A stretch of DNA of 44,883 nucleotides, the filler included, from Catajapyx aquilonaris (Eukaryota), in the NCBI GenBank assembly GCA_000934665.2. It is 2 parts of 2 records of this genome, joined end to end, with 100 filler letters (N's around TTAATTAATTAA, not from the genome) between each part and the next. Parts side by side here need not be neighbours in the genome. Positions count along the whole stretch, not along the records: positions 22,492 to 44,883 come from JYFJ02005874.1; 1 more part is not named here. The stretch is one strand, 5' to 3'. The translations under genes and the position numbers were made by a program. Of the stretch, positions 40,701 to 43,471 are shown piece after piece. Numbering within the stretch: the first letter of the stretch is position 1; each line of letters opens with the position of its first letter. The notes under the pieces are model-generated. The model ran no database searches. It worked only from the letters and a program-made list of their open reading frames with translations, and was not told where the DNA came from.

Positions 40701-43471
40701 TTGTCATGTATACATTCCAAAAGCCAATTTTGGCGCTTTCTTCCCCCTTGTCAGACATCCTAATTTACAACATTACTAGAAGAGACATTTTGCATAACAG
40801 AATTACTATATAAAGTTTACGTAGCATCAGCATTCCAGTTGAAGAAGTTAGAAGTGTGCCTGGGCCTATAGTAATTGAATTTTACAAAAAAGTAGGAATA
40901 AAGAGTATTACTTCCCTCTCCTCACACTGAACTGTACTGTTCTAGTTTAGTTTATGTTAAAACCAGTGTGGGTAACTTGTTTTGGGAAAGGTGGGTACTA
41001 CTCTCATATCTTATGCCAATTAAGAATGGCACAAGGTATGTCAATAAAGCTTCTAAAAGTATCAAGGCAATATGTAGGTCACTCTACAGTTTTTTTCCCT
41101 GGACCAGGCAGCCACATGGGAAAGGGCAGTGCTTTGCTAACCATTTTTGTCTGAAAAATAAAAACCCGATTTTTTATTTTTATGGGGAAGGAGAGGGGCC
41201 TTAAGCTCTCTGCCCCTTGATCTCATCAGCAACACCATGCAATTTAAACTCCAATGTGACTGAAACTAAAGTTAAGAGCTAGAGAACAGAGTGGTAAGGT
41301 CCATCTCCCCATCCTTCCTTCTCCTGTGCAAGGGAGTGGTTGACAAAAACATGGTACACAGTTATATGCCGCATTATTTGTATAGGTTCCTATATCATAT
41401 GGTAATAATCTTATTGCTCTCAAACTTGATCCGTTTTTTGAAATTTGCATTTGAAAACCTTTCGTGCAAGTCATTCAATGACTTGCAGCATTGAGAATTG
41501 TTGTGTCTAGAATTCTGCAAATTGTTCATAATTACTAATGCAAATGTCAGCATTAAAGTGTTCCTTTCTACACCAATCCCAGGGAAGTAAACTGCTGACA
41601 GAAATTTTGTGCCTGTTTGAAACAGTGGTGGGGCACAGAGGGTACTGAATGGAGGGATAGGAGCACAGGAATCAAGTAGAAGGTGCAGCGAGGCCTTGTA
41701 ATCAGTCTGGTTCTTCTTTCCTTTCCAGAGGCACAAGCGAGAGAAATGCAATAATGCTGCTTTGCATTGTCCTTCTGGCTGTGCCTCTGTTGTGCAAGCG
41801 TTACTCCTGGGACCGGGCAGCTGTCCCGTGGGGACCGCCCGGGGGAGTAGCGTTACTACTCCACATCGCCCACCAGTGGGGGTGTGGAGGTGGTGGTCAG
41901 GGGTGGCAACTCACCCTGCCCACTCCACCCACCCACCCACCCACCCACCCACCTGCCTGTTCTGCCCTGCCGACTGTCTTATGATTGAATCGTGCAACGC
42001 TCTCAGTTGTCTTGCTTGGCGATCTGTACATGAGTCTACACAACTACACACTCCCCCACTCTGTGTGGCTCAAATATGGTGAGACCAGTTGTTGTGGCAC
42101 ATGCTTTGCCATGGTGGAGACAGACCCACACCTTACTTGTGATCACACATACACAAACACATACATCTTCATGCTCCCATGCTTGGGGGTCCCAGCGTTG
42201 ATGTCCATTGGGCCGTCACTTATAAGGAAAGGCCTGAGAGATGCACCACTGCATTCTGTGCCACACATGTTTAGGTCTGCCACAGGTAATTACAACTGGG
42301 TCAATTAGGCTACTTTTACTTTATGGCCTTTTTTGAAGTGATCAATTGTGGTACATACAAAAAAAAAAAGTGTCATTTAAGCTACCACTAGCTGTAAGCA
42401 GTGGGGTCATTTATTTGGACAACTCAAGAATGACAGCACTGGAGGCACGTATGATTGTGCACAATATATTATGATTTCTCAAATTCAAACTTGTACATGA
42501 GAGGCTTGATCAGAAGTGAAATTGCGTGCAGTCCTTCTTGAGACCCACTCTCTAGCATCAAGTGTGCACTAAACATAAATGCACCATGTAAATGTGCACT
42601 TATTAAAAGTAATGATTCAATGTACATTCTAGGCAAAATTCAAGCAGCTGGTAACAGTTGTAAATGGCGCAACTCTCTTACATGACTTTATGTTTCAGTG
42701 AGGGGTTTTAAAAATATGTATACTGGCCACAGTTATATCACAATTACGTAGTGTAATATGCACCATTAATATTATTAAGAGTGATTTGCACTTAAAGGTA
42801 ATGTATATAGTCTAAGACAGGGAAAGGAATCTGGTATGAGGAGGAATATTTCACTGTCAAATTGGAGGTTTGTGTGGTGAATCATGATTTGATTGAATTG
42901 TGACAGGTCCATCATATGATGAAGATAACATACTCTTTTGCTATGAAAATTTATAGGTTATGGAGGTTAGATTTCCTAAGGATGGGTTAGATTTTAATAT
43001 TAGAGGGTGAGCCCTGTTTCTGCATTCAGTGGGCTTCCCCTCCTGAAGCACCTTATCACTTGCTACCAAGTGAAAGGTTGGTATAGAATTAATGTAATAA
43101 TATTCCTCATATGAGTACTTCTGAATTCATGTTTCTTGTTAGTAATGAAATATGAAAATATTGGCTATGAAGAGCAGAAGCAGTGGTTATACATAAATTT
43201 GACTTCAAGTCTAAGTCACCTCTTTCCACTCTAGATGTGGAGGATGTCAAGTTTGTCATCAACTTTGACTATCCTGCGTGCTCCGAGGATTATGTCCATC
43301 GCATAGGACGCACTGGACGCTCTGAAAGAACTGGAACGGCGTACACATTTTTCACACCTGCAAACATGAAGCAAGCAAGCGATCTAATCTCTGTATTGAA
43401 AGAAGCCAACCAAGTAATCAACCCAAAGCTGTACGAGATGTCAGACATGTCACGTTCCATTGGTGGTCGAG
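25696..43471 (+). CDS. DDX5: DEAD-box RNA helicase DDX5/DDX17 (p68/Dbp2/Rm62 family), 3' end unresolved: join(25696..25727,26124..26330,29467..29592,29699..29810,29879..30067,30229..30408,30472..30644,30718..30828,32516..32577,36413..36472,43235..43471)
   Basis: Eleven GT-AG exons join in one frame (1489 nt) giving Q motif [46 protein letters not shown] and HRIGRTGR, with DDX5/17-typical flanks. DDX5 versus DDX17 is a vertebrate split, so the symbol is nominal. Confidence 0.95.
26124..26330 (+). CDS. DDX5: DDX5/17 exon 2 (RS/RD repeat, G-rich, LRKPRWD...PFQKDFY)
   Basis: tttcag| acceptor, AG|gtgagt donor. Confidence 0.92.
26459..26964. mobile_element. MITE flanked by TTAA (Kolobok- or PIF-like)
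   Basis: ttaa-GGGGCGCATTAG.AAAAA..TACGGTA ... TACCGTATTTTTACTAATGCGCCCCC-ttaa. Confidence 0.75.
27682..27860 (+). mobile_element. Decayed V-domain-like SINE (family B)
   Basis: Degenerate tRNA head then ggggttctcctgtttcctcccacagtccaaa, resembling the V-SINE central domain; homologous to 32850-33108. Confidence 0.65.
29467..29592 (+). CDS. DDX5: DDX5/17 exon 3
   Basis: [45 protein letters not shown], phase consistent. Confidence 0.92.
29699..29810 (+). CDS. DDX5: DDX5/17 exon 4 (Q motif, motif I)
   Basis: [37 protein letters not shown]. Confidence 0.95.
29879..30067 (+). CDS. DDX5: DDX5/17 exon 5 (motif Ia)
   Basis: YILPAIVHI...PTRELAQQI...FGGAPKGPQ; 189 nt. Confidence 0.95.
30229..30408 (+). 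CDS. DDX5: DDX5/17 exon 6 (TPGRL, DEAD)
   Basis: IRDLERG...TPGRLIDFL...[26 protein letters not shown]; donor AGG|gtgagt. Confidence 0.95.
30472..30644 (+). CDS. DDX5: DDX5/17 exon 7 (motif III SAT)
   Basis: [16 protein letters not shown]...[12 protein letters not shown]. Confidence 0.94.
30718..30828 (+). CDS. DDX5: DDX5/17 exon 8 (motif IV)
   Basis: [37 protein letters not shown]. Confidence 0.93.
31121..31834. mobile_element. pogo/Tigger-like MITE, TA TSD
   Basis: ta-CAGTCGAATCACTCTATAACGAA ... TTCGTTATAGAGGGATTCGACTG-ta; internal ATATAACGAA repeats. Confidence 0.85.
32516..32577 (+). CDS. DDX5: DDX5/17 exon 9
   Basis: [20 protein letters not shown]; donor G|gtaagt. Confidence 0.94.
32850..33108 (-). 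mobile_element. tRNA-derived V-domain-like SINE (family B), full length
   Basis: Minus-strand A box-like TGGCGGAGTCG, B box AGTTCGATCCC, V-like core, 15-bp TSD ATCAATATTTATATA at 32835-32849 and 33109-33123. Confidence 0.85.
33157..33290. mobile_element. 134-bp palindromic MITE, TA TSD, nested in the mariner arm
   Basis: ~55-bp near-perfect inverted arms TCGGGTTCGATTAGTTCCGGCCACTTTAT... Confidence 0.8.
33306..33766 (-). mobile_element. tRNA-derived SINE, family A relative, nested in the mariner arm
   Basis: Minus-strand A box TGGTGTAGTGG, B box GGTCGAGTCCC; 15-bp TSD TAGTACATAGAATGT at 33291-33305 and 33767-33781. Confidence 0.85.
35029..35452. mobile_element. Tc1/mariner-type MITE with ~110-bp TIRs, TA TSD
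   Basis: ta-CAGGGTGTATCTGAACTC ... GAGTTCAGATACACCCTG-ta. Confidence 0.88.
35489..35911. mobile_element. Second Tc1/mariner-type MITE with ~110-bp TIRs, TA TSD
   Basis: ta-CAGGATGAAGGGAAAC...GGACAATCGCCAGGTAG / CTACCTGGCGATTGTCC...GTTTCCCTTCACCCTG-ta. Confidence 0.85.
36413..36472 (+). CDS. DDX5: DDX5/17 exon 10 (motif V)
   Basis: [20 protein letters not shown]; acceptor gattccag|, donor G|gtaagt. Confidence 0.94.
36473..43234 (+). other. Large structured intron within motif V of DDX5/17 (candidate autoregulatory intron)
   Basis: 6762-nt phase-1 intron at ARGL/D; many nested complementary segments with G-U pairs on the sense strand (see findings). Confidence 0.7.
37587..37953. mobile_element. 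hAT (Charlie-like) MITE with 8-bp TSD
   Basis: TIRs CAGGGGTGGGCAAA / TTTGCTCACCCCTG; CTCTAGAG at 37579-37586 and 37954-37961. Confidence 0.9.
43235..43471 (+). CDS. DDX5: DDX5/17 exon 11 (motif VI)
   Basis: [14 protein letters not shown]...HRIGRTGRS...[10 protein letters not shown]; donor G|gtaag. Confidence 0.94.

Follow-up and report, generated by a model that had tools for sequence, protein, structure and literature searches.

A conserved stop-carrying exon with a probably helix-masked acceptor in the long intron of an arthropod DDX5/DDX17-type helicase gene

Helicases of the DDX5/DDX17/Dbp2 type remodel RNA structure transcriptome-wide, and a self-regulatory role of their conserved long intron has been known since the 1990s. 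The autoregulatory conserved intron of yeast DBP2/dbp2 was reportedly described by Iggo et al. in 1991 and by Barta and Iggo in 1995, and the conserved intron of mammalian DDX5 (p68) is said to have been described by Moore et al. in 2011. For SR and hnRNP splicing factors, ultraconserved poison exons were reportedly described in Lareau 2007 and Ni 2007. These exons are also mentioned in PMC5737842. PMC4695336 and PMC1920232 both cite the conserved intron of yeast DBP2 as the means of its autoregulation; the DBP2/dbp2 intron is described there as having kept its place and its length between yeasts and higher eukaryotes, and its effect in S. cerevisiae as dependent on helicase activity. In mammals, p68 is described as a negative regulator of p72/p82 and apparently of itself, probably via the intron (PMC5737842, PMC1920232).

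A sensing element for such control has, according to bioRxiv 10.64898/2026.01.23.701338, so far been defined only in plants. There, the DEAD motif, called plant-specific by its authors, is a hairpin in intron 4 of DRH1 in which an alternative 3' splice site is concealed and which is sensitive to helicase activity, and opening of its stem by the helicase was both proposed and tested as a negative feedback. The motif occurs in DRH1/RH14 and RH46, and use of the site gives a cassette exon or an alternative 3' variant with a premature stop, which is targeted to NMD (PMC12218528; bioRxiv 10.64898/2026.01.23.701338).

Here, a window of 44,883 nucleotides from Catajapyx aquilonaris was analyzed; positions count along this whole stretch and all features given below lie on the plus strand. 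Translations of its helicase exons match the Pfam families DEAD (PF00270, 1.1e-19 and 7.3e-08) and Helicase_C (PF00271, 1.2e-06), and GSGKT, DEAD, SAT, ARGLD and HRIGRTGR (motifs I to VI) are readable in the translation. The top match among solved structures is DDX17 (2.6e-29, 103.6 bits), with DBP2 (2.1e-17, 65.9 bits) and then DDX3X (52 bits) further down, and the named database homologues, many of them from arthropods, are DDX17, DDX5, p62 or dbp2. By these matches and names the host gene lies nearer to DDX5/DDX17/Dbp2 than to other DEAD-box proteins and, as judged from its sequence, it is an arthropod orthologue (Rm62/p62 in insects).

The constitutive exon with motif V (36412-36472) ends in phase 1 and is followed by GTAAGT, and the next constitutive exon (43235-43471), which carries DVEDV, encodes ...HRIGRTGR of motif VI. 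Between them lies an intron of 6762 nt (36473-43234) at ARGL/DV, where the slash, as below, marks a splice junction; its position and phase are the same in six metagenome loci (L001, L003, L004, L006, L012 and L024). The canonical joint from 36472 to 43235 is present in contigs of two runs, X1 (depth 27.5) and X2 (depth 191), which come from relatives and not from C. aquilonaris; X2 is labelled 'RNA?', which is a guess.

Inside this intron, TGTAATC, which from its sequence may act as the branch point, is followed by the block CAGTCTGG, common to L003 (41697-41710), and then by the pyrimidine tract TTCTTCTTTCCTTTCCAG with the acceptor AG at 41727-41728 (41711-41728). Together with AG 41729-41730 it forms a tandem acceptor. 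A phase-1 joint from 36472 to 41729 would read E A Q A R E M Q before an in-frame TAA, codon 9 past the junction (41752-41754). The candidate poison cassette exon of 557 nt (41729-42285), for which the acceptor was deduced from homologues and the donor end from a joint in X2, is bounded by the donor GCCACAG/GTAATT (42279-42291; exon end 42285). An alternative donor, TG/GTGAGA (42077-42084; exon end 42078), was seen in the genomic sequence only and would give an exon of 350 nt; both lengths are 2 mod 3 and would shift the frame. The ORFs of 41729-42285 gave no Pfam match and no protein homologue. A second intronic block, 36592-36676, is conserved with X2 (3/85 differences, record 5), and no specific long-range pairing was found for it. 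Recursive splice sites carry an acceptor AG directly before a GT, by which the donor is regenerated; such a ratchet point was ruled out, since the acceptor reads CAG/AGGCAC and no GT directly follows the AG.

The acceptor AG and bases 1-7 of the exon lie in CAGAGGCACA (41726-41735), the 5' arm of a basal helix whose 3' arm, TGTGCCTCTG (41780-41789), is its perfect 10-bp complement. An inner helix pairs AATGCAA (41745-41751), of which ATGCAA also occurs in L001 and L012, with a strand at 41761-41770 inside the conserved block TTTGCATTGT. The fold energy of the hairpin is -30.8 kcal/mol and 9/10 pairs have predicted probabilities of 0.9-1.0 in contexts of up to 1 kb; with its flanks the hairpin reached z = -2.15 or -3.52 in two computations. 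The pairing probability of the constitutive acceptor AG at 43233 is 0.004. The pyrimidine tract, the AG and the TAA of the original prediction are present where it had placed them, and its perfect 10-bp helix was confirmed by complementarity. Searched against Rfam, positions 36000-44000 contained no family at gathering score, and three sub-threshold matches all lay off the hairpin. A pre-miRNA, mirtron or snoRNA was ruled out, the stem being interrupted, the inner part variable and a curated-family match lacking.

The pyrimidine tract and CAG/AGGCAC with the complement GTGCCTCT were found in five of the seven complete ARGL/DV introns (window, L001, L003, L012 and L024), with 43-198 nt between the two conserved arms; L004 and L006 contained neither the motif nor an analogous hairpin. 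The 5' arm CAGAGGCAC and the 3' arm GTGCCTCT are invariant in the four other loci, and apart from CAGAGGCAC no 9-mer of the 6.76-kb intron recurs in all four. BLAST between the ARGL/DV introns returned no other similarity, and third-codon identity among the window, L001, L003 and L012 is 0.33-0.52. The invariant blocks are exact reverse complements, although they enclose an insert of variable length and sequence. Because arms and acceptor are kept in introns that are otherwise unalignable, the helix is considered a real feature. Minimum-energy folds contained the basal helix, 8-11 bp long across loci, in 5/5 cases, and the acceptor AG was paired in 4/5; in L024 it sits just outside the helix, and a covariance model failed to recover this locus. 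Covariation in the stem, scored on four sequences, was not significant and lends the helix no support: it amounted to one double change with 8/10 pairs invariant, a score reached by 274/500 shuffles. The donor 13-mer is identical at position 2238 of L001, giving a 481-nt exon there, and AG/GTAATT in L003 gives a 379-nt exon. Read-through past the acceptor stops in 5/5 loci, after 8, 70, 5, 10 and 6 codons. Judged by these loci, conservation extends to both ends of the exon, the two helix arms and the premature stop.

Compared with X2, the region across the acceptor (41691-41739) has 0/49 differences, and none are listed from 41739 on to 41789. The match of a second X2 contig is confined to 41699-41789, with divergence to either side, and ends at the last base of the helix. 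In the adjacent coding exon 30/241 sites differ, and 25/25 of the differences with a listed position are at third codon positions. With 0/49 against 30/241 and with the invariant arms across loci, the poison exon is conserved beyond neutral expectation. Record 7 of X2 joins 42285/GT..AG/43235 in a single contig of depth 5.5, with a shorter side of 30 letters, and the donor at 42285 is thus used in the RNA of a relative, under the label 'RNA?'. X1 carries GCCACAGGTAAAT at the donor site (42279-42291) in unspliced form. The contigs of X1 and X2 contained no joint from 36472 to 41729, and the two X2 contigs spanning the acceptor run through it without a splice. They also contained no joint for the donor at 42078, in a part of the exon that is unalignable with X2.

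Use of the acceptor can be read from proteins. Among 120 homologues listed, five carry ARGL-EA... tails, which only splicing into AG/AGGCAC can give, so that this acceptor appears to be used in other arthropods; these proteins represent five arthropod orders or classes (tick, millipede, beetle, spittlebug and springtail). Four of the five proteins end at the tail, which adds 3 to 9 residues. The tail of the Allacma protein looks like a gene-model artefact. Truncated proteins are annotated as 'isoform X2' in tick and beetle, RefSeq models that may rest on little RNA evidence. Taken together, the invariant arms, the donor joint in X2 and the ARGL-EA... tails support the predicted poison exon with its acceptor AG in a hairpin, and the proposed conservation between species was borne out by arms and acceptor that are invariant in four deeply diverged loci. 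Both predicted donors exist in the sequence, and the one at 42285 is joined to 43235 in X2 and recurs in L001, but the one at 42078 found no support; likewise, of the predicted junctions, that from 42285 to 43235 was seen in one contig of a relative (X2) and that from 36472 to 41729 was not, and no one molecule displays the two together.

The explanation preferred on balance is a conserved poison exon with a helix-masked acceptor that would act as a sensor of helicase activity. There is little doubt that 41729-42285 is a conserved alternative stop-carrying exon, and it is probable that the helix forms and masks the acceptor AG. More tentatively, and with doubt and belief close to balance, analogy suggests that the helicase senses its own level through this helix. 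The exon would be used in C. aquilonaris itself and the helix would form in vivo; NMD of the isoform and opening of the helix by the helicase itself are presumed from the plant DEAD motif. In the proposed mechanism, the acceptor AG and the first 7-8 bases of the exon would form the 5' arm of the 8-11-bp basal helix, so that the AG is hidden while branch point and pyrimidine tract stay single-stranded. At high helicase activity the short helix would be opened, the acceptor used, the poison exon included and output lowered; at low activity the helix would remain closed, the exon would be skipped and full-length mRNA made. Inclusion would bring a stop nine codons past the junction and a frameshift, and the product, lacking motif VI, would be non-productive through NMD or as a dead truncated protein.

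Exon and helix could also be real and the helix be read by another input than the helicase itself, such as a double-strand-binding protein, an editing enzyme, temperature or transcription speed, or the helix could loop the exon in a way that helps or hinders exon definition. The loop, the inner strands and the flanks are conserved in sequence as well (TTTGCATTGT is common to the window, L001 at 1792 and L012 at 6651, and 41699-41789, 91 nt, is identical to X2), which suggests that more than simple pairing is under constraint. In L024 a donor candidate follows 26 nt after the exact 3' arm, so that the helix there would span almost the whole exon, and splicing of Drosophila Rm62 is described as responding to depletion of 11 RNA-binding proteins (PMC4617972). 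However, the product of the host gene is an enzyme that opens short duplexes, and the basal helix of 8-11 bp compares with a maximum of 10-15 bp that DEAD-box proteins are described to unwind efficiently in bioRxiv 10.64898/2026.01.23.701338, where the corresponding plant system is presented as helicase-specific. Another input is considered unlikely, at perhaps one chance among a few.

A decoy exon is less probable still. Here, unproductive engagement of the spliceosome at the exon would cause retention or detention of the intron, whose upstream part would stay in the transcript, and nuclear holding or decay, with cassette inclusion as a by-product. X2 contains unspliced sequence upstream of the acceptor and the block 36592-36676 at depths of 4-5, similar to the 5.5 of the exon body, and three listed arthropod homologues (P0010, P0069 and P0078) have tails of intron read-through after ARGL. 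Furthermore, the conserved intron of mammalian DDX5 is described in PMC5737842 as retained and without a poison cassette, and the S. pombe dbp2 intron works via nuclear decay of unspliced RNA (PMC4695336). However, the four database proteins that end in ARGL-EA... imply that full splicing into the acceptor occurs, and once 42285 is spliced to 43235 the transcript is non-productive under both models. The decoy exon and the poison cassette are compatible and do not exclude each other.

It is very unlikely that the exon's role is to produce a shortened helicase, ending after motif V, with its own function, dominant-negative or as a scaffold, as the 'isoform X2' annotations might suggest. The product would lack motif VI (HRIGRTGR), and the tails, 3-9 residues in the proteins and 5-70 codons in the loci, have only EA in common, which AGGCA, and thereby the helix, dictates. 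The 1-nt and 4-nt indels between window and X2 inside 41729-42285 indicate an exon without coding constraint; what is conserved is RNA and not peptide. The 'isoform X2' annotations of arthropod helicase genes are probably poison-exon products and not functional isoforms.

Within the single window the helix alone is statistically unremarkable. The pyrimidine-tract score of 16/18 at 41727 is reached by 10/2486 AGs of the window and by 3/386 of the intron, the latter being two places because 41727 and 41729 are tandem AGs. Counting perfect inverted repeats of 10 bp with a loop of 3-60 nt, and leaving out low-complexity ones, the window has about 15, whereas first-order Markov simulations gave 2.9 +/- 1.6. 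A predicted pairing of at least 0.99 is found for 8% of the intron's 386 AGs, among which the candidate acceptor ranks 23rd. It is the cross-species evidence that lifts the feature above chance. A cryptic acceptor and an inverted repeat that lie side by side by accident in intronic or repetitive DNA, although the window has many helices and paired AGs just as good, are a negligible explanation already refuted by the comparative data: in the same intron of four further, deeply diverged loci neither arm varies, X2 has 0/49 differences across 41691-41739 and none listed to 41789, the region has no copy elsewhere in the window, and the pattern had 0 matches in the prokaryote genome and viral collections.

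If the helix is indeed a built-in gauge of DDX5-type unwinding activity, structure-gated unproductive splicing would be a general, possibly ancestral control of level in this helicase family, and self-regulation would explain the long retention of the intron. Were the same logic fixed across arthropods in an unrelated sequence, the principle would be shown to be general, and the compact element of ~65 nt with two invariant arms would offer a handle on how a non-specific helicase measures its own activity. The dose of these helicases matters: in the account of bioRxiv 10.64898/2026.01.23.701338, their over-expression is tied to human cancer and, in plants, to severe stress phenotypes.

Like the SR and hnRNP poison exons, the arthropod exon is a stop-carrying cassette in an RNA-processing gene, for which autoregulation is expected, and is more conserved than neighbouring synonymous sites; there, however, the regulator binds exonic motifs, whereas here complementary arms that hide the acceptor are conserved. 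With mammalian DDX5 it has in common a conserved intron in the same gene family, where partially spliced RNA accumulates (PMC5737842, PMC1920232), but the arthropod element is a spliced cassette exon and its hairpin is unlike a pre-miRNA, with no Rfam miRNA family at gathering score. Yeast DBP2/dbp2 likewise has an unusually long, inefficiently spliced intron that lowers helicase expression. In contrast, it acts by intron retention and nuclear decay (Mmi1 and the exosome in S. pombe) with no cassette exon (PMC4695336), and in the descriptions from PMC4695336 and PMC1920232 no hairpin-masked acceptor appears. Like the arthropod element, the plant DEAD motif is a hairpin within a long intron of a DDX5-type helicase gene. 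It has no sequence likeness to the Catajapyx hairpin, forms a single stem of ~20 bp where a basal helix of 8-11 bp and a variable inner part are found here, and its function was tested in plants, whereas in arthropods it is deduced. Membership in the plant DEAD motif was rejected on account of the other stem, the arthropod host and the absence of an Rfam match, a search in which Rfam 15 may lack the motif. By analogy, the arthropod hairpin may work like the plant motif and yet not be a member of it. It is possible, though doubted somewhat more than believed, that this helix, almost unchanged in its bases between the arthropod subphyla (chelicerates, myriapods and hexapods), is to animals what the DEAD motif is to plants, a gauge of DDX5-type unwinding placed in the same intron that is linked to self-regulation of yeast DBP2.

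The plus strand of the window encodes a DEAD-box helicase, and the Pfam families DEAD and Helicase_C match its exons. Its top relatives of solved structure are DDX17 (2.6e-29) and yeast DBP2 (2.1e-17), with DDX3X far behind, and its homologues in the database, many of them from arthropods, are named DDX17, DDX5, p62 or dbp2. The candidate exon lies in a 6762-nt intron between ...ARGL and DVEDV...; the upstream exon ([20 protein letters]) ends at 36472 in phase 1 and is followed by GTAAGT.

All sequence elements of the original prediction could be identified in this intron. The very strong pyrimidine tract is present (TTCTTCTTTCCTTTCCAG) and ends with the AG at 41727-41728. 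When 36472 is joined to 41729, translation in the helicase frame gives E A Q A R E M Q before it stops, as claimed, at the TAA at 41752-41754. The acceptor AG lies in the perfect 10-bp helix that had been proposed, as CAGAGGCACA (41726-41735) is fully complementary to TGTGCCTCTG (41780-41789), and both donors exist, TG|GTGAGA (exon end 42078) and CAG|GTAATT (exon end 42285), corresponding to exons of 350 and 557 nt, each 2 mod 3. The predicted stability of the hairpin is -30.8 kcal/mol, with probabilities of 0.9-1.0 for 9 of the 10 pairs in contexts up to 1 kb, and the constitutive acceptor at 43233 is predicted to be open (pairing 0.004). Taken within the window alone, only some of these features are unusual. 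Of the 2486 AGs of the window, 10 reach the Y-tract score of the candidate (16/18). The window is rich in perfect 10-bp inverted repeats that have short loops (∼15 compared to 2.9 expected), and 8% of the 386 AGs of the intron are predicted to be paired at ≥0.99, among which the candidate AG ranks 23rd. No second copy of 41600-42400 or of the intron was found anywhere in the window.

Other identities of the region were considered. A recursive splice site was rejected since AG|GT is missing, and a minus-strand coding ORF at 41395-41910 was rejected since the joint is on the plus strand and the region contains frameshifting indels; a miRNA hairpin and a transposable element were rejected as well. 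Rfam searched with 36000-44000 gave three sub-threshold matches only (SNORA27-like, mir-1234 and mir-654), none touching the hairpin; the SNORA27-like match at 36984-37083 on the minus strand (26.3 bits, gathering score 64, E 0.21) is most likely due to chance. For the exon ORF as a protein, neither a homologue nor a Pfam family was found. Translation from an ATG at 42264 in the exon gives M F R S A T and continues in frame across 42285^43235 into DVEDVKF..., so that, judged by the reading frame, exon-including transcripts could in principle encode an N-terminally truncated C-terminal helicase fragment. A (CCCA)n microsatellite is located within the exon at 41925-41952.

A run search with 41650-42350 as query returned only two sequencing runs, with small word shares (0.09 and 0.06); both (designated X1 and X2) come from relatives and are diverged from the window. 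Their contigs were aligned to 36000-44000 at 85% likeness, uncovered parts being uninformative and 41915-41963 being skipped as repeat. The type label of X2, 'RNA?', is a guess; spliced joints are present in this run. The canonical joint 36472->43235 was observed in X1 and X2 alike. A 528-nt contig of X2 (record 7, depth 5.5) aligns to 41854-42005, where it shows 9 differences, a 1-nt insertion and a 4-nt deletion (5 gapped letters in total), continues with 291 unalignable letters replacing 224, matches 42230-42283 with 2 differences and then jumps to 43233. With the cut shifted by 2, this jump is the joint 42285|GT..AG|43235, and therefore the proposed donor at 42285 is used in this relative.

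Around the acceptor, X2 record 6 shows 0/49 differences over 41691-41739, while its 173 upstream letters are unmatched. The loose ends seen at 41699 and 41789 suggest that another X2 contig matches 41699-41789 with unlike flanks; by elimination, it is inferred to be the second member of an X2 contig pair listed with ≥99% likeness. Its match stops at the last base of the helix (41789). In the neighbouring coding exon, X2 differs from the window at 30 of 241 sites, and 25 of the 25 differences listed by position are third codon positions. Thus, the acceptor-hairpin block is much more conserved than synonymous sites. Both acceptor-crossing X2 contigs are unspliced at the acceptor, X1 carries an unspliced GCCACAGGTAAAT at the donor, and the joint 36472->41729 was not found among the contigs of these relatives. 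The exon contigs of X2 (36412-36472 and 43233-43473) fall into two depth classes, 191 against 17, and two distinct sequences are present upstream of 41699, both carrying the conserved acceptor block; X2 seems to hold at least two helicase gene copies. A second intronic block (36592-36676) lies ∼120 nt into the intron, shares 96% identity with an X2 contig (3/85 differences) and is alignable to X2, which the remaining intron is not. Its pairing with other parts of the intron does not exceed that of shuffled sequence, and none is specific with the poison-exon region.

The conservation of the element was followed further in metagenome contigs, in which 25 loci were obtained with the DVEDV exon as query. 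ARGL leads directly into DV in 15 of them, i.e. these are cDNA-like or have no intron at this position, and six (L001, L003, L004, L006, L012 and L024) have a complete ARGL|DV intron of 0.45-2.3 kb in the same phase; two loci with 331 and 200 nt of intron only (L016 and L019) were excluded from this count. By BLAST, the introns show no similarity to each other at E ≤0.01, and the window's intron gave no match at E <0.005 against the 25 loci and none on the element. Third-codon identity is 0.33-0.54 among six loci compared, which do not include L024. When the strong acceptors of these introns were listed blindly, CAG|AGGCAC recurred, and a motif search identified the window, L001, L003 and L012 as having AGAGGCAC and, further downstream, GTGCCTCT. 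In L024 the motif search gave a partner with one mismatch 90 nt downstream, and an exact partner copy is located at 6021, 198 nt downstream. Cross-species conservation, proposed as a check of the candidate, was thus observed in five of the seven complete introns. No 9-mer of the window's intron other than CAGAGGCAC is common to four other introns; by our own arithmetic, any one 9-mer would turn up ∼0.008 times in an intron of 2 kb. The exact 33-nt pattern had 0 matches in metagenome contigs, and a degenerate motif pattern had 0 matches in prokaryote genome contigs and in viral contigs. In L004 and L006 the motif was not found at up to 1 mismatch, and their best-paired strong acceptors are without a convincing hairpin. 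These two loci (378-2639 and 1416-3379) are related, with 84% amino-acid identity, have a 2-kb ARGL|DV intron among otherwise short introns and are devoid of the CAGAGGCAC/GTGCCTCT element.

The main argument for a real helix is that two invariant 8-nt blocks, exact reverse complements of each other, are retained across otherwise diverged inserts, which measure 43-198 nt from arm to arm. The inner helix ATGCAA/TTGCAT is kept in L001 and L012, where either the loop differs or a large insertion is present, and L003 and L024 have other stems in its place. The basal helix is part of the predicted minimum-energy fold in 5/5 loci, with the AG paired in 4/5, and the fold z-scores are -3.5, -2.7, -4.4, -1.9 and -1.7. 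Formal covariation is not significant, 8 of the 10 pairs being invariant, and the covariance model R1 recovered its four training copies only, not L024, and nothing in L004 or L006.

Read-throughs into the exon reach a stop in 5/5 loci, after 8, 70, 5, 10 and 6 codons. The donor of L001, GCCACAG|GTAATT, equals that of the window over 13 nt and defines an exon of 481 nt, and that of L003, GAG|GTAATT, an exon of 379 nt; none of the exon lengths in the window, L001 and L003 is a multiple of three. The sequence after ARGL was examined in the 120 best homologues of the upstream protein part. ARGL-DV... was found in 83, G... tails in 6 and ARGL-EA... in 5. The G... tails of P0010, P0069 and P0078 fit intron read-through; the remaining three belong to fish proteins with other tails. 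The EA tails come from a tick (P0028, Ornithodoros turicata, 'DDX17 isoform X2', EAP then stop), a beetle (P0062, Atheta (Dalotia) coriaria, 'p62-like isoform X2', EAHAG then stop), a millipede (P0082, Chamberlinius hualienensis, EAQFNDALL then stop), a spittlebug (P0108, Clastoptera arizonana, EAHTR then stop) and a springtail (P0055, Allacma fusca, EAHEMR followed by DVEDV...); the springtail tail resembles a micro-exon of the gene model and is given little weight. UniProt A0A1B6... entries presumably stem from transcriptome assembly. G|AG GCA C.. is the exact product of AG|AGGCAC, the third tail residue (Q, H, P or L) always coming from a C-initial codon. Since the EA tails match AG|AGGCAC in five arthropod species, these protein models suggest that the acceptor is used across Arthropoda. 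A few public 'isoform X2' models contain the exon implicitly. Fish DDX17/DDX5 'isoforms' (P0067, P0087 and P0120, from cartilaginous and bony fish) diverge directly after ...SRGL: skate DDX17 X3 and manta DDX5 X2 have short unrelated tails, and in Seriola DDX5 X2 the DVEDV exon is skipped. Separate unproductive events may occur at the ARGL|DV junction in vertebrates.

Elsewhere in the window, the strongest hairpin is a long perfect inverted repeat in an upstream intron (33187-33260; ∼26-bp arms, 22-nt loop), which may be part of a transposon end. In translation, two minus-strand ORFs (33897-34157 and 34330-34629) resemble the C-terminal portion of putative transposases of the mariner/Tc1 type (...[16 protein letters]...). 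The N runs at 22392-22435 and 22448-22491, 44 bases each with 12 bases between, are the filler joining the two records.

The observations are consistent with a conserved poison cassette exon in which an 8-11 bp helix occludes the acceptor. Active helicase would open the helix, whereupon the exon would be included and helicase output would drop. Such self-sensing is proposed by analogy, from the precedent of the plant DEAD motif and from intron-mediated self-control in family members. A different reader of the helix, i.e. a factor other than the helicase, is possible but doubtful. Less probable still is that a decoy exon drives intron retention, for which the intronic RNA of X2, at a depth similar to that of the exon, would speak. 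A functional truncated protein is unlikely since conservation is seen on the RNA only.

For the helicase-sensing reading, plants offer a precedent that has been tested: the DEAD motif is a hairpin in the long intron of DRH1/RH46 that masks an alternative 3′ splice site, and its opening depends on helicase activity and leads to PTC-containing, NMD-sensitive variants (PMC12218528; bioRxiv 10.64898/2026.01.23.701338). DEAD-box proteins unwind duplexes efficiently up to a maximum of 10-15 bp (bioRxiv 10.64898/2026.01.23.701338). Yeast DBP2 and S. pombe dbp2 are under negative control via a conserved long intron (PMC1920232; PMC4695336), and mammalian p68 apparently controls itself and p72 via partially spliced RNA (PMC1920232); the mammalian intron is described as being without a poison cassette (PMC5737842). 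In the full-text literature searched, which includes few subscription journals, neither the element nor the helix is described for a poison exon or intronic structure of animal DDX5/DDX17/Rm62. The plant DEAD motif is called plant-specific (bioRxiv 10.64898/2026.01.23.701338).
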